From: Candidatus Heimdallarchaeota archaeon
Lineage (GTDB): Archaea; Asgardarchaeota; Heimdallarchaeia; Heimdallarchaeales; Heimdallarchaeaceae
Assembly (NCBI GenBank): GCA_030668825.1
Contig: DAOVET010000001.1
Location: 42,634 to 106,633, forward strand
Direction of reading: 5' to 3'
Length of the DNA: 64,000 nucleotides
Part shown: positions 896 through 20,422 of the stretch, one piece after another
How the letters are laid out: each line of letters starts with the position of its first letter
How positions within the stretch are numbered: the first letter of the stretch is position 1
The notes under the pieces: model-generated
Told to the model about the DNA's origin: nothing
What the model saw: only the letters and a program-made list of their open reading frames with translations
Databases searched by the model: none
Position numbers and translations under genes: made by a program

Positions 896-1423
896 GTGTC
901 AAAGAAAACATATCTTACTAACAAAATAGTTCTTATTGGTGACGCAAGAGTGGGAAAAACCTCACTTGTTCGAAGATTCGTATCAAATATGTTTGATCCA
1001 TCTTACAAGATTACTTTAGGTACAACAATAATGAAAAAAGTAGTTGATTACCTTTCTTACAATGTGACACTAGCGATCTGGGACGTAGGCGGCCAGGAGG
1101 TTTTTCGTCAAATAAGAAGCAAATATTTCTTTGGAAGTAAAGGTGCTTTAGCTATTTGTGATGCTTCCAACCTTGATTCTTTCAAGAATCTTTCTTCCTG
1201 GATTGCTTCTTTCAGTAACGAAGTTGGCGATAAACCTATCATTTTTTTAGCCAATAAATGTGATCTTAAGAATCAAGTTGTTTCTGAAGACCACTTAAAA
1301 CAACTTGTTCAAGATACTCCTAAATCTGAATTCATGTTTACTTCTGCTAAAGATGGTACTAACACTGAAAAAGCCTTTATCGACCTCACTCGTCTCATGG
1401 TTGCTGAAGAAGATATTATTTAA
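896..1423 (+). CDS. Rab/Ras-like small GTPase (intact; its 3' part may be island-supplied)
   Basis: G1 GDARVGKT, G2 Thr, G3 WDVGGQ, G4 NKCD, G5 SAK; GTG start; no C-terminal Cys prenylation motif. Confidence 0.95.
   Translation: MSKKTYLTNKIVLIGDARVGKTSLVRRFVSNMFDPSYKITLGTTIMKKVVDYLSYNVTLAIWDVGGQEVFRQIRSKYFFGSKGALAICDASNLDSFKNLSSWIASFSNEVGDKPIIFLANKCDLKNQVVSEDHLKQLVQDTPKSEFMFTSAKDGTNTEKAFIDLTRLMVAEEDII
1121..1164 (+). repeat. Direct repeat, left copy (candidate attL core)
   Basis: aaatatttctttggaagTaaaggtgctttagctatttgtgatgc; 43/44 identical to 20120-20163. Confidence 0.75.
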
Positions 1424-1424
1424 T

Positions 1425-2423
1425 TTATTCATGTTTTACTTTGTTATGCTTTTTTAGATATTCTTCTAATTTTTCTATTTTCTCTAGAAATCCTCTCTTC
1501 TTTTCCTCTTCTCTTTCCTCTCCCCTTAGATAAACATTCGGAAAACTTTCTTTTGTTTCTTTTATTATTTTCTCGTATGGTAAATCTACTTCTTCTTCAA
1601 TATACATTCTTATTTTTCCTGTTAGTGTGTCTAATATTGGTTCCACTTTGTTATAATCCAATACCCACTGCAAGTATTTTGCTCTTCTTAAATCTGCTAT
1701 TATTTCCCTACAGATATTTCTCAGTTTCTTCTTATTTGCTTGTTGTTTTTTCTTTTTCCTATATATCTCATCTAACATTACTGCTCTTATTATTCTTTCA
1801 TTTACTATGTGTTCACATTCCCCATATTCTCTTTCACTTAGCGTATCTCCTAAATCATAACAAAAAGTTAAATCATCCAACATTGAGATAAAGATTATCA
1901 ATTTCCTTGCAATTACACTTGTTTCATCCTTTACATCCACTCTTTGTTTTAGATTTTCATAAAATTGAACCAGTGTCCTCAGAATATCTCTTACAGTTTC
2001 TTCTTGTTGTTTTTTTTCAAACCTTCTTCCTTCTTTATTAAAATGCTTCAAATATATGCCTACCACAATACTAAACAGTATTTCTATTTCTGGATACTTT
2101 TGTATAAAATTCCCAGATTGTATTTTCATTTTTACACTGTTAGTTAATTTCTCAATTCTCTTATTATAATCGTCTTTCTTCTCTAATCCATATAATTCCA
2201 GTAATTCATTCTGAGCATCATTAGAAAGAATTTTTTCTGCTGTTTTAAAAAATTGGAATTCTTGTTCAATAATTGTAATGAGTTCTAAAAAATCCCAATT
2301 AAAATATCCTGTAGAAAAATAATCAATTTTTGTATATTGATGAGATACATTGTACTTTTCATCATTAATCATGATAAAATCCAGAAATTCTTGAATTATC
2401 TGTGATTCTTGGACTTTGTTCAT
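1425..2423 (-). CDS. Hypothetical helical, charged protein at left island border
   Basis: 332-aa ORF; its stop lies 1 bp from the GTPase stop (convergent); no motif recognised. Confidence 0.7.
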   Translation of the reverse strand: MNKVQESQIIQEFLDFIMINDEKYNVSHQYTKIDYFSTGYFNWDFLELITIIEQEFQFFKTAEKILSNDAQNELLELYGLEKKDDYNKRIEKLTNSVKMKIQSGNFIQKYPEIEILFSIVVGIYLKHFNKEGRRFEKKQQEETVRDILRTLVQFYENLKQRVDVKDETSVIARKLIIFISMLDDLTFCYDLGDTLSEREYGECEHIVNERIIRAVMLDEIYRKKKKQQANKKKLRNICREIIADLRRAKYLQWVLDYNKVEPILDTLTGKIRMYIEEEVDLPYEKIIKETKESFPNVYLRGEEREEEKKRGFLEKIEKLEEYLKKHNKVKHE

Positions 2424-2517
2424 TTTCCTCTTTCCTTGTAATAATATTCATATTCTATAGATTTAAGCTTTCTGTGGCAAAAAAAGAGTGGAGGAGTGAA
2501 AATGACTCACCATTTCT

Positions 2518-2940
2518 TCAATTTAGGAAGTGCCAATTTGTAGTAATCCATTTGAAGAAATCTCGTATCTTTGCTTTTTCTGGGAACGAGAAAACTAGAT
2601 TTAGTGCTTCTATTTTGATTTCATTGATTAACTTTGATAACCAATTCCCACCATCACCTAATGAGTATACACCTCTAGTGCTTTCCCATCCTGGAATAAT
2701 TCTACCTGAAGTTTTCTGTTGTCCAAATCTTATGTTTATTTCTACATCATTTATACGTATATTCCCATTCCAATCAATATCAATACGAGAAATACGATTG
2801 TTTGCTTGAATTGTACCAAAACTTATCCCATCTGGATAGAGCGAAATTTCTCTTCTTAAATATTGCATTGCATCATCACAGTTTCTCTGATAATCTGCTA
2901 ATATAAGAGCGAAAAGCTTCATCATTTCATCACAATTCAT
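2518..2940 (-). CDS. Hypothetical protein
   Basis: 140-aa ATG ORF with globular composition, same strand as neighbours. Confidence 0.65.
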   Translation of the reverse strand: MNCDEMMKLFALILADYQRNCDDAMQYLRREISLYPDGISFGTIQANNRISRIDIDWNGNIRINDVEINIRFGQQKTSGRIIPGWESTRGVYSLGDGGNWLSKLINEIKIEALNLVFSFPEKAKIRDFFKWITTNWHFLN

Positions 2941-2995
2941 TCTTTTTAAACAAATAAGTTATAAAAAATTATTATCTTAATATAAAGAGGATTTG

Positions 2996-3592
2996 TTAGT
3001 CTTTTTGAAAACGATTGTAAATAGGCTTCAAAAGAGGAACAAATAAGAGAAGAGAAAGCATCATAAAAGAAGTTGAATCTGGATTTGGACGCAGTTCAAA
3101 CAAAACCAACCATGCCGAACTATGGTCTTCATCTGTCGCTAGTGGTATGTTTTCTGTAAAAGTTAATAGGCAACGAACATTACAAGTCCCCCAATTTGAA
3201 TTATAATTAATAGTTAGGTCTTGTGTAATATAGCTACCAACAGTTGTGAATTCCTCGCTATAGGTTTTTGTTTCAATGTTACCAATTGTATAAATATCTA
3301 TAGTTAAACCTATGTTTTTTATTCCTTGTACATTGCTTCCAAGCGCTCCAAGTTCTATAATGATTTTACCTTCCGCTTTCTGATTATGATTCAGAGAAAC
3401 ATCATCAAAAGAAGGCTTAATTAAAATCTCTGTCCCACGAGTGGTTGTTACAGTATGTACTTCAAAGGTAAGCGCAGAAGGATATGAAACAGCTGAGAAA
3501 ATAAATAGTAAGCCAATGAACAGAATTTTAATCTTTTTATTCAAATGTAATTCACCGCAAATACAAAGGAAGTAAATATATTTAAAGTGCAC
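2996..3592 (-). CDS. Secreted/membrane-anchored protein
   Basis: Basic then hydrophobic signal-like segment (KKIKILFIGLLFIFSAVS), beta-rich body, C-terminal hydrophobic helix; true start probably ~16 codons downstream. Confidence 0.7.
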   Translation of the reverse strand: MHFKYIYFLCICGELHLNKKIKILFIGLLFIFSAVSYPSALTFEVHTVTTTRGTEILIKPSFDDVSLNHNQKAEGKIIIELGALGSNVQGIKNIGLTIDIYTIGNIETKTYSEEFTTVGSYITQDLTINYNSNWGTCNVRCLLTFTENIPLATDEDHSSAWLVLFELRPNPDSTSFMMLSLLLFVPLLKPIYNRFQKD

Positions 3593-3609
3593 TATAAGTT
3601 ACTTTACAT

Positions 3610-3843
3610 ATGCGAATGAGTAACGAAGGTAAAATCATTTTCAATCACATGGGAATAGAATATAGAGAATGCATAATAGAACAATGTATGTGGAACGTCA
3701 ATTGGGAAGAACTACGATTGGCAGAAGAGACAGCGGGAAGACCTCTACCAAAAAAATTCGAGGGAAGGGTGTGTAATTGTGTTCCAGAGAATCCTATAGG
3801 TATTTTAGAAGCTTCTAAAGTACGATGCAATCCAGAAGGTTAA
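3610..3843 (+). CDS. Small Cys-containing hypothetical protein
   Basis: 77 aa with 5 Cys; ATG start. Confidence 0.45.
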   Translation: MRMSNEGKIIFNHMGIEYRECIIEQCMWNVNWEELRLAEETAGRPLPKKFEGRVCNCVPENPIGILEASKVRCNPEG

Positions 3844-3881
3844 AAAGGTTAATTATCAACTGTAGAATTCATTTTCTATCT

Positions 3882-4118
3882 TTATATAAAATCTTCTAAT
3901 CCTAATTGTTTCTTCGGTCTCATAAAATCCTTCAGTTCCTTATCCTTTTGGTCAATGAACCATTGTTTGATGAGCTTGGTTTCAGGATCAACAACAGACT
4001 TAGGTATCCAGATAGGATTATCAACAAAACCATCAATAAGAGCTAGAAAGGCTTTCTCTGTCTCAATATCTACTTTACCTAACTTAAAGTCTGAATACTT
4101 ACTCCGATTCTCGTCCAT
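3882..4118 (-). CDS. Small virus-like protein with C-terminal PIP-box-like motif
   Basis: ETEKA...WIPKS pattern seen in small phage/viral proteins; ends QLGLEDFI (QxxLxxF). Confidence 0.6.
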   Translation of the reverse strand: MDENRSKYSDFKLGKVDIETEKAFLALIDGFVDNPIWIPKSVVDPETKLIKQWFIDQKDKELKDFMRPKKQLGLEDFI

Positions 4119-4272
4119 ATTAAAAAGAAAGAGGAGATTTCAGTTTATAATGATAGAGCAAAGATGTATATTAAGTTGGATATTTTTTCTCCTTTTTGCA
4201 TTTACTTGAATAATCTAAACAAATAACTTTATTGTATTCAATTTCCAATATCTTAGATATTATGGGAAATTT

Positions 4273-4926
4273 CTATCTCTTGTTTGAATTTTTCTTTCGG
4301 ATTGCGAAAATCACAGTACATATCAACAAAATGGATAATAGTGGTAATGCAAAAGAAACATTTGTTTGTTCAGTAGGATAATAGTCAAATTCAATGTAAG
4401 TGACATTCATATTACCTGAATTCATCTTTATTAAAGCAGGTAGTTCTAGAGTAGTTATGTTATTTACAAAATAACCTGTATTTATTGGTCTCCAGAGAGT
4501 ATAATTTCCATCCTCGGGTTGAGATAAACCCGATTGATTAATATAAAATTTCACGTAACTATGTTCAACAGTGATTCCTGGAGCATAAGAATAGTGCATT
4601 ATTGTTGCATGAGCTATCATCAATGGATCAATTACCAGTGTTTGGTTACTAAGGGTTGCATTTATGAAGACTTTAGGATAAAAATCTGATAACTCAACTA
4701 CTGTTTGATTTTCCTCAGCTCTATTCAGAATTTCTACAGTAACACCGATACCAAATAGAGTAGAATTTGGTTTATTATATAGATTAGTAATTACAGCAAT
4801 TTCACTAACTTCTGATACTCTTGAAGCAATAACAGGAAGATTACCAGAAACTGATAAATTGATTGAAGAAACACATATGTATGCAATTAATATTAAAGTA
4901 AGATATTTTCCTAGTGGTTTAATCAT
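4273..4926 (-). CDS. Surface protein with signal peptide and C-terminal TM anchor
   Basis: N-terminal hydrophobic signal, many NxS/T sequons, C-terminal TM plus RKKNSNKR tail. Confidence 0.8.
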   Translation of the reverse strand: MIKPLGKYLTLILIAYICVSSINLSVSGNLPVIASRVSEVSEIAVITNLYNKPNSTLFGIGVTVEILNRAEENQTVVELSDFYPKVFINATLSNQTLVIDPLMIAHATIMHYSYAPGITVEHSYVKFYINQSGLSQPEDGNYTLWRPINTGYFVNNITTLELPALIKMNSGNMNVTYIEFDYYPTEQTNVSFALPLLSILLICTVIFAIRKKNSNKR

Positions 4927-4995
4927 ACTTTTTCCTCCATTTAATCTTTTTAGCAGACGTACCTAATTAAAGTTAAGTACGAGGTTTAATAATTC

Positions 4996-6192
4996 TTACC
5001 TTGCTAGTCTCCCCTCCGTATATGCCTTTCCAAATGCTAAATAAGCATCTATATATCCATATCCAAATTTTTGATCAAAAGTGCTTCGCGAACTAGCATA
5101 GTATAAGATATCCAAAACTTTCTGGAGAGAAGGGTCAGTAGAAGAACCTATTCCATTGTGATAAGCTGTTATTATCAAAGCAATTGTTGCAGCCAAATAG
5201 GGAGTACTAAAACTGGTTCCAGCTCCATATTTCCAAATACCTCTATAGATTCCAAGTGATTGATCATAATATGCATCCGTTAATATAGGTATACCATTCC
5301 CTGGTTCTACCCAGTTTACAATATGATTACCTGTAGTATAAGATTTATACCAAGATGAAAACCAGGATTTATGATGTATCCATGAGTCGCTTCGATCTTC
5401 ATGATCTATTGAACCAACAGCATACCACTCAGAGTAATATGATTGATACATGTAATTATAACCCCAACGGTAATTAAGATAATTGTAATAGTTACCAGCT
5501 GCTGTAAGTAACATCACATTTTTAGTAATCAAACTTGCCCATTTTTGATGGATTGTTGTATCTTCAGTAAAATCAATTCTTGAGACCCAAGACCATGAAA
5601 CTATATCGATATCCTTTGATGCTTGATTATCATCTATCCATTCCCAAATTTCATATTGTCCATAAGTAAATCCATAGGGATCATATAACTCTTCCTCTTC
5701 ATTTTCCACATATAAATCGATAAAAATGACTTTTACATCTCTGGCGATGGAAGCTAGTACAGATATAACTGCAAATCCATGTCCATGAAACACTTGATTG
5801 TCTAGAAATGGATCATTAGGATTAGTAATGAATTTTATTTCATTATAACATCTGAAATCGTTTGTTAAGAACCCAACAATATCCACATTCGCTTCAGGAT
5901 TTTGTTCTAAAGCTTTCCATTCCAAATCAGTTAAACCATCATCAATTATTACGACAGTAACATAATCATCTATAGTAACTCCATGCTCATACACAATTAC
6001 ATCTGTTTCTGTATACTTATATGCTGCATCTTGAAGATTTCCAACTTTTACTGCTGGATTTATAACAGGATCACCAATTGCTCCGCATTTTAACCAATCT
6101 AACATTTTGAGTTGATTATTACACATATCAGGTAAAGGTGCCAATCCAATACATACTATCAAGCAAAAGGAAAGAATTTTTTCATATTTCAT
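4996..6192 (-). CDS. Secreted S8 (subtilisin-like) serine peptidase
   Basis: Catalytic triad motifs VVIIDDG, HGHG and GAGTSFSTP; oxyanion AAGN; C-terminal GYGYID; signal peptide. Confidence 0.88.
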   Translation of the reverse strand: MKYEKILSFCLIVCIGLAPLPDMCNNQLKMLDWLKCGAIGDPVINPAVKVGNLQDAAYKYTETDVIVYEHGVTIDDYVTVVIIDDGLTDLEWKALEQNPEANVDIVGFLTNDFRCYNEIKFITNPNDPFLDNQVFHGHGFAVISVLASIARDVKVIFIDLYVENEEEELYDPYGFTYGQYEIWEWIDDNQASKDIDIVSWSWVSRIDFTEDTTIHQKWASLITKNVMLLTAAGNYYNYLNYRWGYNYMYQSYYSEWYAVGSIDHEDRSDSWIHHKSWFSSWYKSYTTGNHIVNWVEPGNGIPILTDAYYDQSLGIYRGIWKYGAGTSFSTPYLAATIALIITAYHNGIGSSTDPSLQKVLDILYYASSRSTFDQKFGYGYIDAYLAFGKAYTEGRLAR

Positions 6193-6411
6193 TATTCTTG
6201 ACTCCTAGATAGTAATTTTATCAAATTCTAGATCCTCTTGTTTCCTTAAAAACCTGTCTTATTTTCAGATGCTGCAAATGTGTCGTAAATTTCCAATATT
6301 CTTTCTTTCATTTCTTTCAATGTTGTTTTTACCACCTTTATAAATCAAACTCCTGATAATAGTTCACCTACACTCCTTGTTTTACATCCCACTGAAAGTA
6401 AAAAAGGATAG

Positions 6412-6966
6412 TTGGTGAAAGAAGTGGGTAAGAACATGTATACAAGATTAAAAGAAGAAGTAAAGAAATATCTCTCCTCTTTTAAAAGGTTTCAAGAAGA
6501 ACTACAATCATTTAAAGAATTTAGAAGAAGTATTGATTTACCATCAGAGATGACAATAGATCTATCGGAAACTAAGGACCAGATGGAAGCTATTAGAAGA
6601 TATGAAGCAAGATTACAGAAAGGAAAAGATGATCCAACTTGGTTTACTCTCACTAAGATGGTTACTGATGTTTTTTTCGAGATGAAAAAAGAGTTTGAGG
6701 TATTCATGCAAGAACCTCAGTTTCTAGAAGGTAGAAAGTGTAAAAATCTAGTTGATTTAACTACTTATGTAGTTGGAGAATTACAAGAACTAGAAGTTAA
6801 GCTTTACTCCAAACACATGGATGAAGTAGATTGTTCTGTTTGTAACCAAAGTCATCTTATTCTTGATGAGAATAGAGCAGAACAGACATGTAAAAACTGT
6901 GGCATAGTAATTAGAGATAAGATATCCGAAGAGGAAATTAGTCTTAAATCACAACCTTTTTTCTGA
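6412..6966 (+). CDS. Coiled-coil protein with C-terminal TFIIB/TFB-type zinc ribbon
   Basis: CSVCNQSHLILDENRAEQTCKNCGIVIRDKI fits the TFB Zn-ribbon pattern CxxC..l.D....E..C..CG.V; no cyclin folds; probable ATG at 6436. Confidence 0.7.
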   Translation: MVKEVGKNMYTRLKEEVKKYLSSFKRFQEELQSFKEFRRSIDLPSEMTIDLSETKDQMEAIRRYEARLQKGKDDPTWFTLTKMVTDVFFEMKKEFEVFMQEPQFLEGRKCKNLVDLTTYVVGELQELEVKLYSKHMDEVDCSVCNQSHLILDENRAEQTCKNCGIVIRDKISEEEISLKSQPFF

Positions 6967-7030
6967 TAAAAACTTAAAAAGGATAAGGATAAATTCTACT
7001 AATCTTAATTATTACTTAAATAACGAATAT

Positions 7031-7609
7031 TTGGATGGAAAAATAATGACTATTGATGGTTATGATTTACAGGATGGTTTTACTAGAAATTATCATTCCT
7101 TTCAATTGACAGGAGAGCATACAAATACTACTTGGACACATAGAATCCTCGGTTACTTTGATAGACTGGGGAGAATGCTAGGATACGAAGTACAATTTGA
7201 AAAAGAAATATATGATTTAACTTGGTGGGATTATTCAATTAATCAAGAAAAAGGGAAGATTATTCTCCATGTCGAACATGAAAATTCAACAAATAAGAAT
7301 AAGATAATCGAAGAAACTTTAGAATACAAAATTCTAGATTCTGAAGCAAAAATAGCTCTTGCTATCTGTTATCCTAATAATTCTCAAGATTTTGATGAAA
7401 TTAAACTTTGGATTAAAAAGAATGTTAAAAAACGAATGAAAGCAGAAGAAGTAGCCATCATAGTAGATGGTTGTTGTTATGGAGAAGAACCATATCATTT
7501 TGCAGTTCACATGATTACGAAAAAGAAATCAGAACTATACCTTTATGACAAAATAACAGTAAATGAATATCATTGCTTAGAGTATAAGACAGAAGAAAAT
7601 TACGCGTGA
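7031..7609 (+). CDS. PD-(D/E)xK restriction-endonuclease-like protein
   Basis: GYEVQFE...YDLTW...ILHVEHEN catalytic-type pattern. Confidence 0.65.
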   Translation: MDGKIMTIDGYDLQDGFTRNYHSFQLTGEHTNTTWTHRILGYFDRLGRMLGYEVQFEKEIYDLTWWDYSINQEKGKIILHVEHENSTNKNKIIEETLEYKILDSEAKIALAICYPNNSQDFDEIKLWIKKNVKKRMKAEEVAIIVDGCCYGEEPYHFAVHMITKKKSELYLYDKITVNEYHCLEYKTEENYA

Positions 7610-7638
7610 TGGACGTATCGTGTAAAATTGTGAATTAT

Positions 7639-7869
7639 TCATTGATTTTGTATTCTCGCTTTTATTTTTTTTGTTTCTTCTTCAGATAAAATCTTATCTC
7701 TCTTCCCTAAACTACATTCTTTGCATGTTGTTGCTAGATTGTCTAGTGAATGTTCTTTTACTATTGACCAAGGTATAATATGGTCAACTTGTAATTCAAC
7801 TTCTGGAGCTGAACGACCACAAATTATACAAGAAAAATTATCTCGTTGTAGAACCTCAAATCTCAAACT
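7639..7869 (-). pseudogene. HNH endonuclease domain, in frame behind the stop of the upstream membrane-protein gene
   Basis: SLRFEVLQRDNFSCIICG...VDHIIPWS...NLATTCKECSLGK; no ATG of its own; directly follows TAA at 7870-7872 in the same frame. Confidence 0.75.
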
Positions 7870-8493
7870 TTAAGGAATTGAACTTTCATCATCTTTTTTG
7901 ATTTTTGCTGTAAATACAAAACCCCCTAAACATACAAAGAAAATTCCAAATGTTAAGAGAAAAGCACCAATAACCATCCACCACCATTCTAAGTCAAAAA
8001 CTAATATCCATAATCCAACAATAGAAGAATATAGTAAGTTCAAGTAAGTACGTCCTCTGAATATCAATCTGCAAAACAATTCCTTTCCATTCTTTGGAAT
8101 ACTATAACCTAGAATATATTTCCTGATTTCTTCATTATCAAATCCTTTTATTTGTAATCGAACAAAATGCAGAAGCACGTATTCTTTCATCTCTTCGTAC
8201 ATAGTTGTAAGATTAAAATAATTGCACCCAATAACAAAGATTCCAATAAAAATTACAAAACCAATCCGTAGATAAGGTTCATCATTTTGTGTTGAAGGAA
8301 AATCGATCTGAATGTAACTTGAACCAAAATACGCTCCTAATGAAATTATTGCTAACAATGATGGGAATACAGAAATAAATCTAAACTTTTGAGAATTTAG
8401 GAATTTAATTCTATTAAGAATCTGTTCATGAAGAGTCAGAAGTTGTTCTTGTGGAATATCATCGTTTTCTTTCTTATCATCTTTTTTTGTCAT
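7870..8493 (-). CDS. Multi-pass membrane protein (probable N-terminal part of a TM-HNH fusion)
   Basis: About four hydrophobic helices; ends SSIP* in frame with the HNH domain. Confidence 0.75.
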   Translation of the reverse strand: MTKKDDKKENDDIPQEQLLTLHEQILNRIKFLNSQKFRFISVFPSLLAIISLGAYFGSSYIQIDFPSTQNDEPYLRIGFVIFIGIFVIGCNYFNLTTMYEEMKEYVLLHFVRLQIKGFDNEEIRKYILGYSIPKNGKELFCRLIFRGRTYLNLLYSSIVGLWILVFDLEWWWMVIGAFLLTFGIFFVCLGGFVFTAKIKKDDESSIP

Positions 8494-8705
8494 TTTCTTT
8501 CATCGTAAACAGATAAATAGCACATATTTAAATCCCGATGTTTTTTTCACTAAATATAATAGATGTAAGAATTTTAATTTTTTTTCAATTTTCGGTATGT
8601 TTCTGATACTATACACTCCAATAATTCGTCAAAAACTACTTTTTATACTCAAATTTAAATAGAATAAAAAATAATTAAGATTGCTTTGAGTAATTCGTAT
8701 ATAAG

Positions 8706-9251
8706 TTGGGAAAAATCATGAATAACACTTCAAATAACAAAAGTGATGAACAACTACAATATGAATTAAAAAAACTAATAGACAAGTATAATAAATTCAA
8801 GAGAGACAAAGGTCGTTCAGGTTTAAATAAATTGAATGAAGCAGAAGTAAGAAAAGACTTCATTGATCCTTTCTTTGCAATTCTTGGGTGGAATATTCAT
8901 GATTCCTCAGAGTATGGTACTGAAGAACATATCAAAGGTGTAGGAAGAGCAGATATCATATTAAGAGATTCCAAGCTTATTTCCACAAAACCTCAAAGTC
9001 TTGTTTATGTTGAAGCAAAACGGTTTGGTATTCTTCATTCTAAACCACTTGATACTAAACAAGTTGATCTTTTGGGAAAATTTGTTCCTGATTGGACAGA
9101 AGAAGATAGACAAGCAACTAATTATGCAATGGCAAAAAACATAAGATGGGCAAGAATTAATGGAATATATCCTATTGTTGTCAGTCAAGAAATCAACAAT
9201 CAGATAATGGGTAAAATAACATTTGAAATTATTGCACATTCAGATATTTAA
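8706..9251 (+). pseudogene. Truncated type I HsdR-N / type IIG restriction-modification N-terminal nuclease domain
   Basis: NEAEVRKDFIDPFFAILGW...GRADIIL...VEAKR...QATNYA...IRWA; family resemblance stops at ~9152, and no methyltransferase or helicase domain follows. Confidence 0.7.
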
Positions 9252-9277
9252 TATTTTGTTAATTAGGTTCAGAAAAT

Positions 9278-11623: not shown

Positions 11624-11844
11624 AAATATTTTAGTCTCAACTTAATTTATAAATCATACGATTGAATGTTCATTTAAAATTCTAATCAATCAGATTCTAT
11701 GATTGGTTGGTTTAAAGAAAGAATCTATCTCCACTTTATTGATTTCCAAATTTTTAATATCAATTTCTCTGCTAAACATAAATAGTACTACTACGAAGAT
11801 CAATATACAGTAAGAATCAAATAAAAAGTGTAAATTCTGATGTT

Positions 11845-12216
11845 CTAATACTGTCTTTTTCTATTAAGAAAGTTTGCTTCTACTTCTGCTTCTATCTCTT
11901 CTCTTATCTTCTCCTCCATTCTTTCAGCCCATTTATTGAAGAGATACTTAAATGGTAACACTTCTATTAAGAATAATAGTAAGAATATTCCAGAACCTAT
12001 TACTCCCAATATTCTCAATAATATCATCCATATTGCTTCCCCCAAAACTGTCTTCTCAAAATAGAATGCTGCTGCTGTTCCGCAAATAAACACTACTGCT
12101 CCTATGAACGCACCTAATCTATCTTCCCAGCTAAATACTTTTTCTCTCTCTCTTCTTATCCTTTCTGCGTATCTCTTTAATTCAGTATTTTTTATTATCA
12201 TATAAACCCAAACCAT
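11845..12216 (-). CDS. Small two-TM membrane protein
   Basis: Two hydrophobic helices flanked by charged segments. Confidence 0.6.
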   Translation of the reverse strand: MVWVYMIIKNTELKRYAERIRREREKVFSWEDRLGAFIGAVVFICGTAAAFYFEKTVLGEAIWMILLRILGVIGSGIFLLLFLIEVLPFKYLFNKWAERMEEKIREEIEAEVEANFLNRKRQY

Positions 12217-12318
12217 ATCTTTTTTTCATCTTTCTACTCATCTCTGCAGGATGTGTTTCTTCTATTATTATCACCATCCACATGACGAAAAATACTGTCA
12301 AATATCCCATTATCTCTA

Positions 12319-12633
12319 TCAACTTATCCCCTCCACTAACAGCTCCCCTATTGTCCTCTCTGTCATCTCAAAGAAGCTCATTATCCCCTCACTCTCATGG
12401 ATCAGTTCATGTAGTTTCTTTAGTTTCACTTCCCTTCCCAGATTATCCTCGAAAGCTATCTCATAACTCCATGCTCTCTTCTCCCTCTCTTCTATCATCC
12501 ACTCCTTCTGTTCTTCAAAGAAGTTCTTCAGGAAGAATTGTAATCCATATACTGTCGTTATCTTCTGTCTTGTTAGTTCTATCCTTCCCTCTTTCCCTTC
12601 TACATAGATTACAAAGACCATATTCCAGTTCAT
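12319..12633 (-). CDS. Hypothetical protein
   Basis: 104-aa Glu-rich ORF on the purine-rich strand, like its neighbours. Confidence 0.45.
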   Translation of the reverse strand: MNWNMVFVIYVEGKEGRIELTRQKITTVYGLQFFLKNFFEEQKEWMIEEREKRAWSYEIAFEDNLGREVKLKKLHELIHESEGIMSFFEMTERTIGELLVEGIS

Positions 12634-13032
12634 TTTGCTCTATTTTGCTTATCAGAACTTTGGTTTATAAAGTAGGGAAAGTTTTTTTCTCGAGTTTTTA
12701 AATCAATTTACAGATTAGTGGTTGAAGCTGGCACAAACCCTTGAAATTCATATATCTAAAAAATATAACTCATCACACTTTAGCTGGCTTCGACCCACTC
12801 TTTTCTTCTCTCAATCTCCTTCATCAGTTACTTATGGAAGCAAAATTAAAAATCTGGGTTTTAGATTGATAAAATAGAGAAAATTAGTGAATTTTTCAAC
12901 CTTCCTCTCAAACACCTGAAAAAAATAGACTTCTAACTTATCTCACATTTAGTATTTCTATATCCTTATTTTATTTCGATAGAGGAAAATCAAAAATGCA
13001 AAAATCAAACAAACTATTCTTGTTCAAGTATA

Positions 13033-14700
13033 CTATCTTCTTCTTTTAGAACTAAATCGGGAATAACCAAATACAATTAGTGGGATTAGTACAATTAAAG
13101 AAAGAAACGAGTAGTAAATATTATTATTCCTATAAACTGGAGGTTCAGAAAGAGGATAAAGATCTTGTGCATTTGCAAATCCATCAATATAATAGCTACC
13201 AACTACCACAAAATAGTCTGACCAATAATTTCCTTCCTCATTTTCTTCATCATACCAGAGATTATCTCCATCATCTCTCGCTTGGGAAGTACCGTAATAC
13301 TGGTTGTTATTGTAAAAGGAATTATGGTGAACAAGATTGTTGACTGAATCTTCATCTAAAAATACTCCCCAAAAATAATTATTAGTTAAAGTATTGTAAG
13401 TAATAGAGATATTTGATGAGTTTTCAAGCACTAACCCATGATTATTATTGCTTAAAATATTATTTTCGATTAATGAATTACTTGTTTGCACAAGTAGAAT
13501 CCCTTGTTTTTTATTGAAACTACAGTTATTGTTCATGATGGTTATTCTATCACTAAATTTAACATGTATTCCTATTAATGTTTGATCCAAGACTTGATTT
13601 TTTATCATGAATTCAGAGCAATTGGAAATAAATAGCTGACCATAGATTGGTTTTGTTATTTTCAAATTATTTTGGTTTGTAAAATAACCGTACTCTTTTC
13701 CATTTATCATATTGTTGTACACTGTGTAAGTATGATAATCTGCTGGATTTAATTCGTAAAAATAATAGTCACACTCTGTTAATGTATTCCCAATAAATTC
13801 AGAAAATTCTGAATCCCTTACATATATACCATTAGACTCGGTAGTAATTTCATTATTTATAACAGAGACATTTCCACTATATACTACTGTTAATCCTATT
13901 CCTCCTCCAAAACAGTAATTGTCTGTTACTACAGAATCATTTGAATGAGATAATCGAATGTTAAACTGAACATTATTGAAACAAGAGTTATTTGCAACTA
14001 AAGCTGCTCTAGATGTATGAAGATATATCCCTCCTAAATAAGAATTGTTATGAAGAGAATTGCTAACAACGGTAGCGAAGAAACTGCTACCAAGAAGTAA
14101 TCCTCCTTTGAAATTATCTGAAATATTATTACCATAGATATAACTAGAATTACAATTATTAAGGAAAATACCTCCTTCATTACTCTTTGTACATGTATTA
14201 TTTACGATTCTAATATTTGGTGAAAATATTACATGGATACCATAGCGTAAACCTTCATTACATGTATTTTTGATGAGCTCTATACCTTCTGCTTTACTGA
14301 TCTCCATCCCAGATTTTTGATAATTCTGACACAAATTTTCCTTAATTTTGATACTGTTAGGTGCTACATTTAGAATATAGATACTGTAGTTATCACCATC
14401 CAGAAAACAATTTTGGATCAGGAAGCATTTGGTAGTATAAGATATTGATATACACGCTTCTTCGGTTGTAGTAATGTTAAGATTCTCTATACGGTAAGGA
14501 TCTACAGCTGTTCCTTCTCCTGGTAAGCTGTAAAGAGAGATATTGGTATCAGATTGTATGACAATAGGTATCGAGATTATATATGAATTAGAATTTAAAT
14601 TTCCACTATCTGTGGTAGCTGTAGTAATTTCTATACTCCAACTTTTCATTAGAATTAAACTGAAACACACCACTACTAGTAACCCTTTCTGATATTTCAT
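13033..14700 (-). CDS. NosD-like right-handed beta-helix surface protein
   Basis: Repeated GIxL...N.I.NN parallel beta-helix units, C-terminal GNYWSDY...D.YPL motif, signal peptide, TM anchor plus basic tail. Confidence 0.88.
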   Translation of the reverse strand: MKYQKGLLVVVCFSLILMKSWSIEITTATTDSGNLNSNSYIISIPIVIQSDTNISLYSLPGEGTAVDPYRIENLNITTTEEACISISYTTKCFLIQNCFLDGDNYSIYILNVAPNSIKIKENLCQNYQKSGMEISKAEGIELIKNTCNEGLRYGIHVIFSPNIRIVNNTCTKSNEGGIFLNNCNSSYIYGNNISDNFKGGLLLGSSFFATVVSNSLHNNSYLGGIYLHTSRAALVANNSCFNNVQFNIRLSHSNDSVVTDNYCFGGGIGLTVVYSGNVSVINNEITTESNGIYVRDSEFSEFIGNTLTECDYYFYELNPADYHTYTVYNNMINGKEYGYFTNQNNLKITKPIYGQLFISNCSEFMIKNQVLDQTLIGIHVKFSDRITIMNNNCSFNKKQGILLVQTSNSLIENNILSNNNHGLVLENSSNISITYNTLTNNYFWGVFLDEDSVNNLVHHNSFYNNNQYYGTSQARDDGDNLWYDEENEEGNYWSDYFVVVGSYYIDGFANAQDLYPLSEPPVYRNNNIYYSFLSLIVLIPLIVFGYSRFSSKRRR

Positions 14701-14754
14701 TTTATCACTCTTGTTTTATCTTCTAAATCTCACTTATTCACAATTTATTCTGAA

Positions 14755-16476
14755 TTATCTCAATTTCTTTTCTTGATTATTGAATCTTTTTTTCCTAATT
14801 GTTATTTGGAAATAACCATAAATCATCAGAGGAATAATAACAGCAAACGAGAAAAAAGCATAGTAAATATTCTTATTTCTATAAACTGGGTGTTCAGAAA
14901 GAGGATAAGGATCTACAACACCAGCAAAACCGTCTATACTGTAGTTTCCAACTCCTGAATAGTCTTCCCAGTAGTTCCCCTCCTCTTTTTTCTCATCATA
15001 CCAGAGATTATCTCCATCATCTTTTGCTTGGGATGTACCATAGAAGTTGTTGTTTATGAAAACGTTATGGTGTATTGAGTTATTAGCAGAACCACCACCT
15101 AATACCACTCCCCATAATCCGCTATTTGTTATCACATTGTATGTGATCTCATTGTATGAGGATTGCTCTAATAAGATTCCATACAACCCATTATATTCTG
15201 AAGTGTTGTTAATTATATTCACTCGTTCAGATTTAAATAAATAGACTCCACTTCTGCTATTAAACTTGAAAACTGATTTTGAAATAGATATGTCCTCGCA
15301 ATAATATAGACTTACTCCTGTAGAAAAACTACTTATCAACTGGTTCTTAATTTTGATGTTATTACAATTTACAAGATGTAACTGATTAAAGATTGCTTCT
15401 GAAAGAGTAAGGTCATTTTCATCAACAAAATACCCGAAAAGTTTGTCATTAACGTAATTGGAAGTTACGTAGTACTTCCTGAAATCTTCCACAGTTGATT
15501 CGTATATTCTAAACCCACAATCATAAAGCATATTATTGCTGATTATTGAGTATTCCGCATCCTTTAGATATATACCTGTATTACTCCCTGCACAGATATT
15601 GTCAGAAACAGTCACGTTACCGCCTAAAACAACAATAATCCCATATATTTCACCAGAACAAATGTTTCTTGTTACTAAAGAGAAATTTGAGCTGTGGATA
15701 TCTAAATTAGGTTGCCGATTATTATAACAGATATTATCAGAAACTGTCGATGTATAACACCTAAGTAATCTTATCCCTCCATGTAAATCATTTAAGTAAC
15801 AGCGATTATGCATAATAAGAGAATTCGTACAATCATCCAACACAATCCCTCCTTTTTTATTCTCATAACAAGTATTGTTTTTAACTATGCTTTCAGAACT
15901 TTTATCTATAAACATCCCGACCCAGCTGTTATCAAAACAAGTATTAAGCTCGATTTGACAATTTGGTGAATCTTTGATATGTATACCAAAATAGCTATTT
16001 GAGTAACAGGTGTTATTAATTATCAGTGAGTTTGATGAATTATAAATACGAATTCCTCGTATAGAATTACCAATACAAATGTTGTTTTCAATTTTTGCAG
16101 TTTCATTTTTAACTGATTCTATTACAATACCATTTACAGATGCGTTTACAAAACAATTTTGAATTAGAAAGTGTTTAGTTGTATTGTAAACATAAATTCC
16201 CCTTTCTTTTGTTGTAGTTATATTGAGATTTTCAATTATGAAAGGATTTACAGCTGTTCCATCACCTAGAAATCCATAATCTGTGAAATTAGAGTCATTT
16301 GTAATAACGATTGGTAATGAGTCAATATAGGAAAGAAAAGGTTGATAAGCTTCTTTAGAAGGAAATCTATAACATGTATTCTGAAATTCAGTTTCTTTAG
16401 ATTCTACTGAGGTAAACATTGACAGTAACAAAATACAAAAAATTGTAACTGTTACATTCTTTCTCATATAACCCAT
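14755..16476 (-). CDS. NosD-like right-handed beta-helix surface protein (tandem paralog)
   Basis: Same architecture as 13033-14700; shares GTSQA.DDGDNLWYDE..EEGNYW. Confidence 0.88.
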   Translation of the reverse strand: MGYMRKNVTVTIFCILLLSMFTSVESKETEFQNTCYRFPSKEAYQPFLSYIDSLPIVITNDSNFTDYGFLGDGTAVNPFIIENLNITTTKERGIYVYNTTKHFLIQNCFVNASVNGIVIESVKNETAKIENNICIGNSIRGIRIYNSSNSLIINNTCYSNSYFGIHIKDSPNCQIELNTCFDNSWVGMFIDKSSESIVKNNTCYENKKGGIVLDDCTNSLIMHNRCYLNDLHGGIRLLRCYTSTVSDNICYNNRQPNLDIHSSNFSLVTRNICSGEIYGIIVVLGGNVTVSDNICAGSNTGIYLKDAEYSIISNNMLYDCGFRIYESTVEDFRKYYVTSNYVNDKLFGYFVDENDLTLSEAIFNQLHLVNCNNIKIKNQLISSFSTGVSLYYCEDISISKSVFKFNSRSGVYLFKSERVNIINNTSEYNGLYGILLEQSSYNEITYNVITNSGLWGVVLGGGSANNSIHHNVFINNNFYGTSQAKDDGDNLWYDEKKEEGNYWEDYSGVGNYSIDGFAGVVDPYPLSEHPVYRNKNIYYAFFSFAVIIPLMIYGYFQITIRKKRFNNQEKKLR

Positions 16477-16640
16477 GCAAAATCCTCTTCACTCAAAATA
16501 AGGCAGATATTAATTTTTAAAGATTTTGACTGCATTTTAATTAATTTCCTTTTTCGAATACTATTATAAGTGTTTAAGATATATTATTCTAGATAAAAAG
16601 ACGGTTCAAACATATAGAAGACTTATCTAAAGGTGAAAGA

Positions 16641-18092
16641 TTGAAAACCAAATTCAAAGTGGCTATAATTGCCGGAGCAATAATAGGGCTCGTAAGTATA
16701 ACTATCCCTACTGTTTTTTTTCTAATACAACCTCCAGAGATAACCAATGGTAATAATGACAATAAGAGTATTGATAATGTTATTTACCCAAATCCGCTTT
16801 TTTACCGAGGAACAATTTCAGATATGATGCTTGAAAGTGACGACAGAGTACAGTTTATTGTAGGTAGCTATAATGCCACCTATGTCACCTATCCTCATTC
16901 ACCTGCTTATATAATTTTAGATCACAAAAATCAAACGTGTACATATAAAGAGATGTTCCCAGGAATTACTTCAGGAAATATGCATCAACTAAAAATAGGT
17001 TTAGGTCCAAATAATGAGTCAATTGCTTATAATTTTTTTACCAATCCTTTCGGTTATCTAGTGGCATACTTGTACAAAACAAATACTCTTGGGAGATGGA
17101 TATTCTATCCTGCACTTTCTGATAAACCCATGCCTTACGGTGGTTTTAATAGGAGAAGTGTGTATAACTGGAATTTTATGCCTTCAGGAAAAATAAATCT
17201 CGCTTTCTTATATCAAGGAACTTATAATACACCTGCAATCTATAATGAAACAACAGATAGTTTTTTCTTCTTGAGCGATGTTTTTGAGGAAATTAAAGAT
17301 CAAGTAATTCTTAACAGGTATGGAGACTTTGCAGTTGTAGATTCAAATATTTTCTACTTTTGGTCAGAATATATAAATGAGTACAACTTTCATCCTTATC
17401 TAGCTATTAAATGGCAGGGAGAAGGATGGCAACTAACAAGAATAGGAAATGAATCAGAAACATATATGCCCATCAGTATTATTCCTCAGAAAAATGTAGT
17501 GAATATTTTTTATCATGATTCTGGTAAAAGCAGTTTGAATAGTAGACTCTATCACACCCAGATTTATAATTCTACTAGTAATACTACAACACTTCTACAC
17601 CAATTTGATGGGAGAACTGTTTTTCGTCAAGATTCTGTATGTGCTCTCTCTCAAAATGAGTATGTGTTCTTGTATACTAAAGGGTCGTATGTACTAAATG
17701 CACAAAGAGATCTGTTTATGGGTTATTATGATGGTAAAGAATTCTATGAATTTATGCTTACAGATACTCCACAACTTCTTGAACATCGAGCACATTGTGA
17801 ATTAGGGGAGAATTACATTCATTTGGCTTGGGAAACTAGTATAGACAAAGGAACTGGAATCTATGACCCAATGCAGACTAATCTTTTCTATAATAGAATA
17901 TCCTTAAAGGAAATAAGACTGTCAAAAGAAACTGTTATAATACCATCAATGATAACCATAAAGAATGAAAACCATAGAACAAAGCTCTTTAACGATTGGA
18001 CTTTCTTAAAACTTACTATCTATATTGCTCTGTCCATCAAAATCCTTTTTTTTCCAGTAAAATTCTTGTGTGAGATACAGGGATTCTTATGA
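16641..18092 (+). CDS. Membrane-anchored extracellular protein (beta-rich, possibly propeller-like)
   Basis: N-terminal TM, Tyr/Asn-rich beta-type body; preceded by aaggtga RBS-like motif. Confidence 0.7.
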   Translation: MKTKFKVAIIAGAIIGLVSITIPTVFFLIQPPEITNGNNDNKSIDNVIYPNPLFYRGTISDMMLESDDRVQFIVGSYNATYVTYPHSPAYIILDHKNQTCTYKEMFPGITSGNMHQLKIGLGPNNESIAYNFFTNPFGYLVAYLYKTNTLGRWIFYPALSDKPMPYGGFNRRSVYNWNFMPSGKINLAFLYQGTYNTPAIYNETTDSFFFLSDVFEEIKDQVILNRYGDFAVVDSNIFYFWSEYINEYNFHPYLAIKWQGEGWQLTRIGNESETYMPISIIPQKNVVNIFYHDSGKSSLNSRLYHTQIYNSTSNTTTLLHQFDGRTVFRQDSVCALSQNEYVFLYTKGSYVLNAQRDLFMGYYDGKEFYEFMLTDTPQLLEHRAHCELGENYIHLAWETSIDKGTGIYDPMQTNLFYNRISLKEIRLSKETVIIPSMITIKNENHRTKLFNDWTFLKLTIYIALSIKILFFPVKFLCEIQGFL

Positions 18093-19784
18093 AATTATTA
18101 TTGTTTTCATTAAATTGGTTTGAACTAAGAAATATTCAGGGTCTGTATTGTCGTTATAACAAGTGAGCACAAAATTAATTGTAGAATCTACAATAAATGA
18201 AGTGTTGAGAAAACCTCTAATTTGATAATTACCTGATTTTTGGAGCACAAAAGAGTAACCTCGTGATCTATTTAAGATTAAGTATTCCAATTGCGGTTCT
18301 TCTGCAATGATTTCAATATAACTAAATAATCTAAATGTGTCAAATAACAAATTATTGTCACTATCTATAACTATAGAATCGACTCTAATAATATCTGCAC
18401 GCATAAAATCTGGAACATTGTGGTAAATATATTGGAAATTAATTTCCATTACAAAAGTAGAATTTTCATATAATTCTACTTCTTTAATCGTTATTGATGA
18501 ATTACTAGACCAATTCATACCATAAGCATCAGCAATTTCAAAGTTGTTGACAGTCCAACCATCACAAACTTCTTCTCCTTGGATGATCAAATTACTAGGA
18601 AGCCCTAGAACTAAAATTATTAGAATAAAGGAGATTGCTTTTTCAATTTTTATCTTTTTGGAATAATTAATTGGAACGATTTTATCCACTTCTTTAACAA
18701 TCTTATCCTCTTCTTCAGTCTGATCAGTTTTTTTTCTCATTTTTAGTTTATGTATTAGAAATAGCAAACTCGAAGATAGTATCAATGGAATTATAAATAA
18801 TAAAAGAACCATAATAAAACCTGCTAGAAATTCGCTTGAAATTGCAGAAATGTCCAAATTGAGATATGATTCTAGAATAAGGGATAAGAGTAAATTGTGA
18901 AATAACAAATCGCTCCAGAAAAATATTGTAAACAAGGTTATAGCTATAAAAAATATACTAGCTATCGAAAGTGAAATAATTTTAATTTTTCGTGATTTTG
19001 CTATTAAAGGTTCCTTAATCTTGCTTTGTAGTTTTGAAAGTATTAAAAAGATCCCACTTGTCACAAAAATATAAGCTAAGTAGATACCCAAAGGACCAAC
19101 TTTTCCAGTAATAGGTAAAGTAAAAAGACAAGCAGAACCGAACATTCCAACTAAGCTAAAAGTATAAATCCCATAGAATGGAATAAATGCAATTGTTTGA
19201 TCAACTAGTTCTTCTTTACTATTTGTCCCCTTATGTTCACTTGAGCTCCTTGTTTTTTTCGTAGAAATAATTAAGATCACCCCTTTTAGAAACAACAATA
19301 AAGGAGTAATAAATATTAAGAACAAGAAAAGAACATTCAAATTATTAGTATAACTATTTGCTCCACCAAGAAACATTATAGCTCCCCCTGCCCCATGAGA
19401 CGAGTATTGTATGTGAGCTATTAGTCTTACTAGCTCATCTATATGATATATTGCGAAAAAAACACTAAATAATCCCACTTTTCTTGGGTAGAGTCTAGAG
19501 AGAAGGAAACCAGTGAGTACAAGAATTGCACTTAATATATAATTGGCTAAAGTGTTTTTTTCATTTGAAATATATGCGTCTATCTCGACCCAATTATATT
19601 CTATTGTTCCATTAGCTGAAGATATATCCTGAATTTGAATCGTTTGATCATATAGTGTTAACTTTGATACTCTTATAGTTGCAATAAGTATAAAACCAAC
19701 AATTATCAAAACAGAGAGTATTAAAACAATATAATCCCAACATTTATTCTTGGAAATGTAAAAATGCATTCTTGTTTTCCTCAT
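18087..19784 (-). CDS. Polytopic membrane protein with C-terminal extracellular domain
   Basis: 565 aa with about 9 hydrophobic segments. Confidence 0.75.
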   Translation of the reverse strand: MRKTRMHFYISKNKCWDYIVLILSVLIIVGFILIATIRVSKLTLYDQTIQIQDISSANGTIEYNWVEIDAYISNEKNTLANYILSAILVLTGFLLSRLYPRKVGLFSVFFAIYHIDELVRLIAHIQYSSHGAGGAIMFLGGANSYTNNLNVLFLFLIFITPLLLFLKGVILIISTKKTRSSSEHKGTNSKEELVDQTIAFIPFYGIYTFSLVGMFGSACLFTLPITGKVGPLGIYLAYIFVTSGIFLILSKLQSKIKEPLIAKSRKIKIISLSIASIFFIAITLFTIFFWSDLLFHNLLLSLILESYLNLDISAISSEFLAGFIMVLLLFIIPLILSSSLLFLIHKLKMRKKTDQTEEEDKIVKEVDKIVPINYSKKIKIEKAISFILIILVLGLPSNLIIQGEEVCDGWTVNNFEIADAYGMNWSSNSSITIKEVELYENSTFVMEINFQYIYHNVPDFMRADIIRVDSIVIDSDNNLLFDTFRLFSYIEIIAEEPQLEYLILNRSRGYSFVLQKSGNYQIRGFLNTSFIVDSTINFVLTCYNDNTDPEYFLVQTNLMKTIIIS

Positions 19785-19949
19785 TCTTGATTAGATGTTA
19801 TAAGTACAAACGCGCTCTTAAAAATTCTTTGGAACATTGCTATAGCGCAAAACATAGAATCCATTTTATCATTCTCGCCCTTCAAATTATCATAAAACTA
19901 GTGGAGTAGCAATGATATATGAAATTCTATCTTTTTACAAGTAATATAA

Positions 19950-20079
19950 ATTGACACCGGTGGACAGGGGATGTTTACCTATCTCCGTCCCAAATACTAC
20001 TCTTGACATCCCTGTTATCATCTGCGGTAACAAATTTGACCTTAACGAAGCTCGTACTCTTGATAAAGATACTATTTAA
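19950..20079 (+). pseudogene. Relic of a third small GTPase (G3 and G4 fragments joined by a deletion/frameshift)
   Basis: 19950-20003 reads IDTGGQGMFTYLRPKYYS then stop; 20002-20079 in the next frame reads LDIPVIICGNKFDLNEARTLDKDTI*. Confidence 0.8.
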
Positions 20080-20092
20080 ATTATATTCGTCT

Positions 20093-20422
20093 CAAGAAGT
20101 TTTCAGACAAATCAGAAGTAAATATTTCTTTGGAAGCAAAGGTGCTTTAGCTATTTGTGATGCCTCTAATTCTGAATCTTTTAAGAATATCCCCTCGTGG
20201 GTTGAATCTTTTAAAAAGGAAGTGGGAGATAAGCCTATCATTTTTCTAGCAAATAAATGTGATTTGAAGGATCAACAAGTCACTGAGGATGACATGAAAC
20301 AATTGGTTAAGGATTACAGTAACACTGAATATCTGTATTCCTCTGCAAAAGATGGAACAAATGCTGAAAAAGCTTTCATCAACTTAACCAGACTTATGGT
20401 TGCTGAAGAAGATATAGTATAG
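20093..20422 (+). pseudogene. Orphan 3' half of the Rab-like GTPase (lacks G1, G2 and DxxG)
   Basis: QEVFRQIRSKYFFG...NKCD...SAK...VAEEDIV; 84/109 aa identical to the region encoded at 1094-1420. Confidence 0.9.
20120..20163 (+). repeat. Direct repeat, right copy (candidate attR core)
   Basis: 43/44 identical to 1121-1164. Confidence 0.75.

Follow-up and report, generated by a model that had tools for sequence, protein, structure and literature searches.

GTPase A, a Ras/Rab-like small GTPase gene (896-1423, + strand) in a 64,000-nucleotide stretch of Heimdallarchaeaceae DNA, is a chimera: its native front is joined at the G3 motif to a divergent back carried by an inserted island of about 19 kb, and the native back, termed A' (20093-20422, + strand), is displaced to the far end of this island. 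The reading favoured here, to which a probability of about 70% is assigned, is that a low-G+C island was acquired horizontally, was inserted in GTPase A at the Trp-Asp (W-D) codons of the WDxGGQ motif by a site-directed process, and is now most likely immobile. A second GTPase paralogue, B, carries a related island in relatives. The whole stretch, hereafter the window, corresponds to C20:42634-106633 of the bin G000 (2.76 Mb, 138 contigs), and its DNA matches cold-seep and marine-sediment metagenomes. Locus A was searched for in 40 relatives, from which 20 regions were fetched, and 15 same-genus genomes were fetched for synteny. Read-level data are Logan contigs, which drop rare variants, rather than raw reads, from runs X5, X10, X12 and X13; X5 is a separate sample from the same study as two possible-source samples. 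The middle of the island of genome G024 and the B locus of G000 are unassembled.

The chimeric GTPase A and its displaced 3' part

GTPase A is 175 amino acids long, has a GTG start and matches PF00071 (E 6.5e-37) over profile positions 1-160 of 162. Membership of the Ras/Rab-like group was judged by G1 (GxxxxGK[ST]), G3 (DxxGQ), G4 (NKxD) and G5 (SAK), and G1 to G5 are visible in the translation, indicating a full G domain. An orthologue in the same synteny is found in 24 same-genus genomes, and relatives are annotated in their source records as Rab family GTPases of Candidatus Heimdallarchaeaceae. A' is an open frame that lacks G1, G2 and the DxxG of G3, its first residue being the Gln of DxxGQ. 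The segment 20003-20422 covers Ras profile positions 58-160 only and is thus a fragment.

The duplication of the GTPase 3' half described in the initial annotation is reproduced in all its parts: a gapless direct repeat (1094-1393 and 20093-20392) with a spacing of 18,999 bp and 75% identity; 250 of 330 identical nucleotides between 1094-1423 and 20093-20422; 84 of 109 identical residues (77%) between GTPase A and A'; and a block with 43 of 44 identical nucleotides (1121-1164, + strand, shared with 20120-20163). As the two copies are mutual closest relatives in the genome, their similarity is not due to chance; the next-closest paralogue of GTPase A among the ~30 Ras-like loci of G000 is at most 39% identical. 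Since every orthologue conserves the 44-nt block, it does not represent a specific attachment (att) core.

The two halves were compared using a codon-colinear alignment, nucleotide identities, NG86 distances (synonymous, dS; nonsynonymous, dN) and maximum-likelihood trees, all of which agree. The 5' part of A (896-1078, + strand), encoding G1, G2 and strand β3, is native: nucleotides 1-183 of the gene are 94% identical to the alleles of G009, G012 and G013 (dS 0.24-0.27) and lie inside the native clade (support 94/95). The 3' part, which runs from the W-D codons of G3 through the stop codon (1079-1423, + strand; left limit known within ~10 nt), is a divergent, island-borne A-type sequence: nucleotides 199-525 display 76-77% identity to the same three alleles, with dS of 1.3-1.5 and dN/dS of 0.10-0.12, and form a long branch (0.26) outside the native clade. 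The separate trees for the two halves that the initial annotation had called for thus place the front inside the native clade and the back outside it. The 3' part has diverged as far as subclades of the genus have from one another. A' displays 98% nucleotide identity to the G009 gene, 94% to that of G012 and 92% to that of G013. In the tree it falls inside the native clade (96/94) with G009 as its partner (97/91), and it represents the native back displaced from GTPase A. Given a native 5' part, a divergent 3' part and a native A', GTPase A combines a native front with an island-borne back in one chimeric gene. The island-borne half evolved within a working gene, and the join remains under purifying selection.

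Other alleles share or complicate this picture. The protein P0003, from a Joint Genome Institute (JGI) metagenome, has the same chimeric make-up as A, P0045 is another truncated copy, and P0005 and gene A of G024 are mosaics. The latter (contig C127) is a three-part gene, of island type at G3, native-like at about nucleotides 271-435 and again of island type at its 3' end, which suggests gene conversion between the two copies of G024 or with other alleles. To note, the dS of A' to the G009 allele is 0.049, as compared to 0.27 for the 5' half of A, and A' of G024 groups with G013 instead; either the two occupied sites have different native backgrounds or a recent recombination took place between species.

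An alternative is an assembly chimera of two strains joined at the 44-nt block. In its favour, the genome was binned from a metagenome, Logan unitigs are interrupted near 1075-1160, and the samples contain other alleles. Against such an artefact, dense differences from the native alleles are present from gene position 186-189 at the latest, ahead of the identical block (226-270), the same arrangement was assembled independently in G024 and, from another metagenome, as P0003, and contigs of run X5 bridge both the right junction (18329-20164) and the passage from the A stop into the island (1345-2650). This explanation is very improbable.

Unoccupied sites in relatives

The gene order of the genus around A comprises genes of 1924, 781 and 287 amino acids, A, DUF2122 on the opposite strand, a cytidylyltransferase-like gene, GTPase C on the opposite strand, and a GatE-like gene. 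A and DUF2122 are found on one contig, with the island absent, in 13 of the 15 same-genus genomes, and the gap from A to the next native gene is at most 63 bp in 10 of these 13. G001 and G020 have 1.0-1.3 kb between A and DUF2122 and no island, the G009 contig ends 19 bp past A and is uninformative, and four metagenome contigs (L055-L058) run from A to DUF2122 with no island. In the window, the native left flank stops at A and the native right flank restarts at A'. Locus A is also occupied in G024, with the same architecture split over two contigs; the DNA upstream of A' in this genome is not homologous to the corresponding window DNA. Further occupied sites were looked for in metagenomes, where the close relatives found were all empty.

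The empty locus predicted in the initial annotation, a single GTPase followed directly by the gene of a family-5 solute-binding protein (SBP), exists: contig C163 of G012 reads A, SBP gene, DUF2122 and is unoccupied. As also anticipated, the 3' halves of the empty-site genes are closer to 20093-20422 (92-98% identity) than to the 3' half of the intact gene (76-77%). Two full-length paralogues with conserved genes between them are seen in none of the 15 genomes examined. These observations bear on a local duplication, followed by a 5' deletion of one copy and a later accumulation of genes in between, which would account for two co-oriented copies on one contig. The relatives are single-copy, with no intervening genes; the intact copy combines a native 5' part with a synonymously saturated 3' part while the orphan is 98% identical to the gene of a sister species; and the intervening DNA is compositionally foreign. 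A local origin of the second copy can hence be given hardly any credence.

Two short contigs of G012, C94 and C11, both begin at residue 18 of an A-like gene (76-77% identity) that is followed by DUF2122 (76-79%). They probably represent a second population in this bin.

The right end and the clustering of junctions

Between the cargo and A' lies fragB (19953-20102, + strand), a broken remnant of an island-type allele of GTPase B that was recognized by three-frame translation and is absent from the initial annotation. It starts at the D codon of WDTGGQ, ends in the codons for LKKF and is damaged by a ~95-nt internal deletion after ~20003 and a 1-nt deletion after 20076. FragB is 82% identical to full-length B of G013 and G024, as compared to 65-72% for native B and B' (the truncated copy of B, see below), which assigns it to the island type; it is preceded by unrelated island DNA. 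Sequence, alignment and a loose end in run X13 locate its joint with A' at an 11-nt microhomology, TCAAGAAGTTT (20092-20102, + strand), which can be read as B (codons LKKF) as well as A (GQEVF): a contig of run X13 tracks fragB to 20102 and then goes on as an intact B gene.

The remnants of this kind were scanned for with Pfam over 12 relatives and with tblastn over G000, leaving aside those near contig ends. Seven 5'-truncated Ras remnants were obtained, five of which start at G3: A' and fragB in G000, A' and B' in G024, and B' in G013. The other two start elsewhere, at profile position 72 (G016:C91) and 92 (G009:C129). If the first base of the W codon in WDxGGQ is taken as position 0, the orphans start at 0 (A' of G024), +3 (fragB) and +4 (B' of G013 and G024). 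The island-side DNA is not homologous among the three, which makes them three junctions within 4 nt. FragB and B' of G013 and G024 were considered as a single junction, and this was rejected on the grounds that their upstream DNA shares no homology. Because three non-homologous junctions cluster within 4 nt at W-D, the insertion process is likely to be site-directed.

A second target, paralogue B

The relatives of fragB led to locus B, where a second GTPase paralogue is associated with a related island. The empty site, in G009 and G012, consists of a CDC48-like gene, a 283-aa gene, B and a 386-aa gene. On contig C101 of G013, full-length B is followed by homologues of two island genes of the window, the 332-aa gene (61%) and the 140-aa gene (89%), by ~7 kb of cargo including an S8 peptidase, by a 5'-truncated B' starting at TGGQ, and by the native flank; this island measures 9 kb. 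G024 (contig C21) has the same B' junction with a 2.4-kb island comprising just the last two cargo genes. B' and the single-copy native B genes share 96% identity, while full-length B displays 97-98% identity to native alleles over columns 1-187, 67-73% over columns 188-220 and 78-79% from column 221. Apart from the offset of its foreign tract, locus B follows the same native/foreign logic as locus A. The A and B islands have several gene families in common: the 332/419-aa gene, the 140-aa gene, the 217/228-aa gene (67%) and the S8 peptidase. In G024, the 228-aa gene adjoining A' shares 67% identity with one of the cargo genes on the G013 B island. G004 carries an intact B with a homologue of the 419-aa gene after it, and B' was not detected there.

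Several of these features would fit a process with no site specificity, in which DNA of a divergent congener, where these genes would natively follow the GTPase, entered through one-sided homologous recombination in the conserved 5' half and an illegitimate, microhomology-based joint, the clustering at G3 being coincidental or due to local conservation. The 11-nt microhomology at the fragB/A' joint, the B conversion tract starting upstream of the joint, the intact B of G004 next to a 419-aa homologue with no detected B', the mosaic A alleles (G024, P0005) and the failure to find a recombinase (see below) are all in its favour. It does not predict fragB, a sequence of island type that starts at G3 with unrelated DNA upstream. 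Moreover, nucleotide conservation in A runs to ~270, so that a crossover limited by homology would not end as early as 184-189. With junctions placed uniformly in genes of 525-588 nt, the chance of finding three within 4 nt is put, as a rough estimate, at (9/500)^2. Recombination with no preferred site is accordingly considered unlikely.

Origin of the island and the question of its mobility

The accessory cargo (1424-19952, ~18.5 kb) has a G+C content of 30.45% as compared to a genome mean of 33.3%, and none of 207 equal-size windows of the genome is as low. Elsewhere, its DNA occurs only as fragments, in G024, G012, G009, G013 and G006. The search for mobility genes covered all open reading frames (ORFs) of at least 100 amino acids and selected smaller ones with Pfam, ten ORFs in 1425-12216 with PHROGs, and nine window ORFs in 1425-12216 plus the 520-aa ORF of the G013 island with PADLOC. 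No viral hallmark is found by these three in the ORFs covered, and IMG/VR queried with GTPase A returns matches at 26% identity only.

Several points weigh against a site-directed insertion. No integrase, transposase or other recombinase is found in 1424-19952 or in the G013 B island, although a novel enzyme or one acting in trans may still be responsible. The tyrosine recombinase model PF00589 scores above cut-off in none of the five genomes G000, G013, G024, G016 and G004, which are 87-91% complete, while 14 of 14 controls are positive. The two junctions have no identical core: the copies differ there, and the 43/44-nt block lies 27 nt inside. Joints between ~1090 and ~20090, or between 20092 and 1094, are absent from the contigs of the four runs, a weak negative in view of the loss of rare variants. 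The foreign tract of B begins ~33 nt upstream of the start of B', which a single-point conservative crossover does not predict. Five 5'-truncated remnants starting at G3 came out of the 14 genomes scanned and none out of the four genomes of other genera, every genome compared is a metagenome bin, and the occupied sites are confined to three closely related species, so that truly independent events are few, perhaps 3-4.

Candidate enzymes outside the island were also considered. Small serine recombinases (contigs C29, C80 and C90) sit at unrelated conserved loci and were rejected as the island enzyme. One of them, on contig C90, lies ~1 kb from a seemingly truncated Ras match; the GTPase turned out to be full length and of a divergent family, at a locus conserved in relatives. 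This locus (G000:C90:26213-28577) contains a divergent 231-aa P-loop GTPase, two small ORFs and a 243-aa serine recombinase, and is also present in G013, G024 and G012. To note, a Xer-type enzyme is likewise undetectable with the PF00589 model in the five Heimdallarchaeaceae bins.

These searches bear most directly on a classical self-mobile element with its own tyrosine or serine integrase, whose attP, carrying a GTPase 3' half, would recombine with the G3 site and whose excision would switch the allele. In geometry, the insertion and e14 in icd with icdC are exactly alike (PMC13626634), fragB resembles an attP-type or tandem-integration junction (island DNA, then an island-type 3' half from G3), and the junctions are tightly clustered. 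Yet the lack of an integrase in either island and of a PF00589 match in the five genomes, the unrelated conserved loci of the serine recombinases, attL and attR with no shared core, the foreign tract of B extending 33 nt upstream of the duplication boundary, and the failure to find a circle or empty-site joint in the four runs or a relative in IMG/VR all speak against it, and a classical element is deemed improbable. The initial annotation had proposed an integrative element that replaces the GTPase 3' half. An inserted island supplying a substitute half is borne out by the empty sites, the comparison of halves and the trees; self-mobility and allele switching are not, for want of a recombinase, a core repeat and an excision or circle joint in the contigs of the four runs. 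The window copy is most likely immobile, given that no recombinase is encoded in it and that its right end underwent remodelling.

A contig of run X5 (depth 16.8) runs to 8589, continues with 23 other letters, and then goes on from 1227, in the island-type 3' half of A. It could stem from a rearranged variant of the island, from a tandemly arranged copy, or from a circle formed by a 7.4-kb part.

Proposed course of events

In the site-directed insertion favoured here, the island would land at the W-D codons of WDxGGQ in gene A. Its left end would bring a functional-looking A-type 3' half in frame with the native 5' half, yielding one complete chimeric GTPase, and the native 3' half would be left as a promoterless orphan at the right end of the island, beside the native downstream genes. 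The agent may be a trans-acting recombinase; alternatively, a targeted break may have been repaired with an island-bearing allele as template, the far side being closed by end-joining. At the right end, a second, B-type insertion may have entered the G3 site kept by A', after which a deletion across the 11-nt microhomology would have fused fragB to A'. The window copy would then be a decayed, non-autonomous remnant.

A broader proposal can be made only tentatively and is held to be less probable than its converse: the WDxGGQ-coding DNA of Rab-like GTPase genes might be a shared attachment or cleavage site for non-autonomous Heimdallarchaeaceae islands, each with a matching 5'-truncated GTPase half, the agent being a novel recombinase or nuclease in a lineage with no detectable tyrosine recombinase. 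Such islands would be able to enter more than one paralogue, as fragB is a B-type end in an A site. The outcome would be a modular swapping of the halves from switch II to the C-terminus, together with linked genes.

Cargo of the island

The gene adjoining the substitute half (1425-2423, - strand) encodes a 332-aa protein with no match in Pfam, PHROGs or PADLOC and is found in 5 of 31 family genomes. A HMMER search of 1.8 billion representative proteins with its 419-aa homologue from G013 retrieves a family of 23 members, none of them informative, and the ESM Atlas queried with the 332-aa protein gives no usable match. The 419-aa homologue was modelled with a predicted local distance difference test (pLDDT) score of 84.8 as an all-alpha helical repeat with N-terminal zinc ribbons. 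Foldseek against the PDB returns generic helical-repeat matches, none at E≤0.001. The predicted fold is thus that of a helical repeat, not of a recombinase. Relative to the GTPase, the 332/419-aa gene has a convergent orientation in G000 and G013 (C101) and the same direction in G004 (C72) and G016 (C91); no convincing inverted repeats surround the gene in the window.

The following genes are all encoded on the - strand. The 140-aa gene (2518-2940) has homologues in the B islands of G013 (89%) and G016 (67%); the AlphaFold (AF2) model of its product is unusable, with a pLDDT of 41.5. A subtilase of the S8 peptidase family (4996-6192) matches PF00082 (E 4.3e-10), and a small HNH endonuclease of 75 amino acids (7639-7866) matches PF01844 (E 1.2e-11) and, weakly, PtuB-like proteins. 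The 781-aa protein encoded at 9278-11623 is a defence-type, OLD/GajA-like ATPase-TOPRIM nuclease (PF20469, PF13304; PADLOC models Old, E 8.6e-23, and GajA, E 5.9e-18). A UvrD-like partner, the GajB helicase, is not seen among the neighbouring ORFs, and the protein looks like an OLD nuclease of the stand-alone class, judging from these profile matches. Two paralogous NosD/beta-helix surface proteins of 555 and 573 amino acids (13033-16476; PF05048, PF13229) contain the internal repeats D2 and D3. Further ORFs of the island encode a TFIIB-type zinc-ribbon protein, a restriction-enzyme-like N-terminal domain and several membrane or secreted proteins.

A stretch of ~270 nt at 3879-4154 recurs at 81-90% identity in at least 7 places of G013, with further copies in G012 and G024. 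This small dispersed repeat either resembles a miniature inverted-repeat transposable element (MITE) or is a tiny conserved gene, and Rfam is blank there.

Neighbouring genes

Rfam over 1-24500 identifies one tRNA only (23061-23132, + strand). The native right flank, assigned by synteny, contains DUF2122 (22483-22962, - strand), the cytidylyltransferase-like ORF (23191-23685, + strand) and GTPase C (23706-24236, - strand). The family-5 SBP gene (20607-22427, + strand), identified by a profile match to SBP_bac_5 on this flank, is itself an indel, following the GTPase only in G000 and in G012:C163. Unrelated insertions of 0.9-1.5 kb occur elsewhere between A and DUF2122 (G001, G020) and between DUF2122 and the cytidylyltransferase gene (G016, G019, G021). 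The interval around A, DUF2122 and the cytidylyltransferase gene is an insertion hot spot.

On the left side, a 418-aa TnpB/OrfB_IS605-like ORF (window 1-771, - strand, reaching upstream to C20:42149) lies between the 287-aa gene and A. It is common to G009 (96% amino acid identity) and found in no other fetched genome, and represents a separate insertion sequence (IS) event beside the island.

Relation to known systems

In homology-facilitated illegitimate recombination, one homologous anchor is combined with a microhomology joint, and in silent-cassette systems an expressed gene is accompanied by a 5'-truncated silent copy able to recombine with it. Under neither would junctions be expected to recur at a single motif of two paralogues, and no sign of programmed switching was found.

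The closest geometry is that of e14 in Escherichia coli icd. There, the intact gene runs into the prophage, the displaced icdC pseudogene lies at the far end, and loss of e14 recombines the two and alters the allele (PMC13626634). The likeness extends to an insertion inside a conserved gene, an element-borne 3' end that keeps the frame, a displaced fragment at the opposite end, and unoccupied sites in relatives (13 genomes and four metagenome contigs for A, 2 genomes for B). The prophage e14 differs in being an element with its own site-specific recombination system, SOS-induced excision and a short, nearly identical substitute end. In the GTPase island, the replacement spans ~115 codons, or two thirds of the protein, with 77% amino acid identity, and two paralogues are hit at the same motif, while no integrase was found and no excision was seen.

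Islands that target dusA at its 5' end or trmE at its 3' end (SGI1) have variable cargo and a conserved housekeeping gene as site, whose function is kept (PMC4482086, PMC8409611). They resemble the GTPase island in these respects and differ in having a dedicated integrase beside the att site, which was not found here, and in targeting one gene rather than a motif shared by paralogues. A Tn7-like element on a Heimdallarchaeota contig disrupts a methylase gene and brings a 75%-identical replacement (bioRxiv 10.1101/2025.07.27.667033). It shares an Asgard host and the compensation of the interrupted gene; it contributes a whole second gene and a TniQ-targeted Tn7 module, whereas the GTPase island contributes an in-frame 3' part only, with no transposition genes found. 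Finally, HeimV1, HeimV2 and the aloposons of Heimdallarchaeum integrate at tRNA genes with identifiable integrases (PMC8813620). They are likewise integrated in the same archaeal group with variable cargo, and none is reported in a GTPase gene. Published reports of islands inside GTPase genes were not found in the full-text literature, supplementary files aside.

Significance for GTPase diversification

Small GTPases are the most expanded eukaryotic-signature family of Asgard archaea. The natural alleles described here are demonstrably chimeric, a native N-terminal half with P-loop and switch I being joined at G3 to a synonymously saturated C-terminal half. This join is the border of an island and recurs at the same motif in a second paralogue, which provides a concrete and testable mechanism for the swapping of GTPase halves. 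The conserved insertion targets known are mostly tRNA genes and a few housekeeping enzymes, and a sequence coding for a protein motif is added to this short list. The finding raises the question of which enzyme acts in genomes with no detectable tyrosine recombinase. If the proposal of a shared WDxGGQ site is true, the archaea most closely related to eukaryotes would have a route akin to exon shuffling by which their GTPases diversify.

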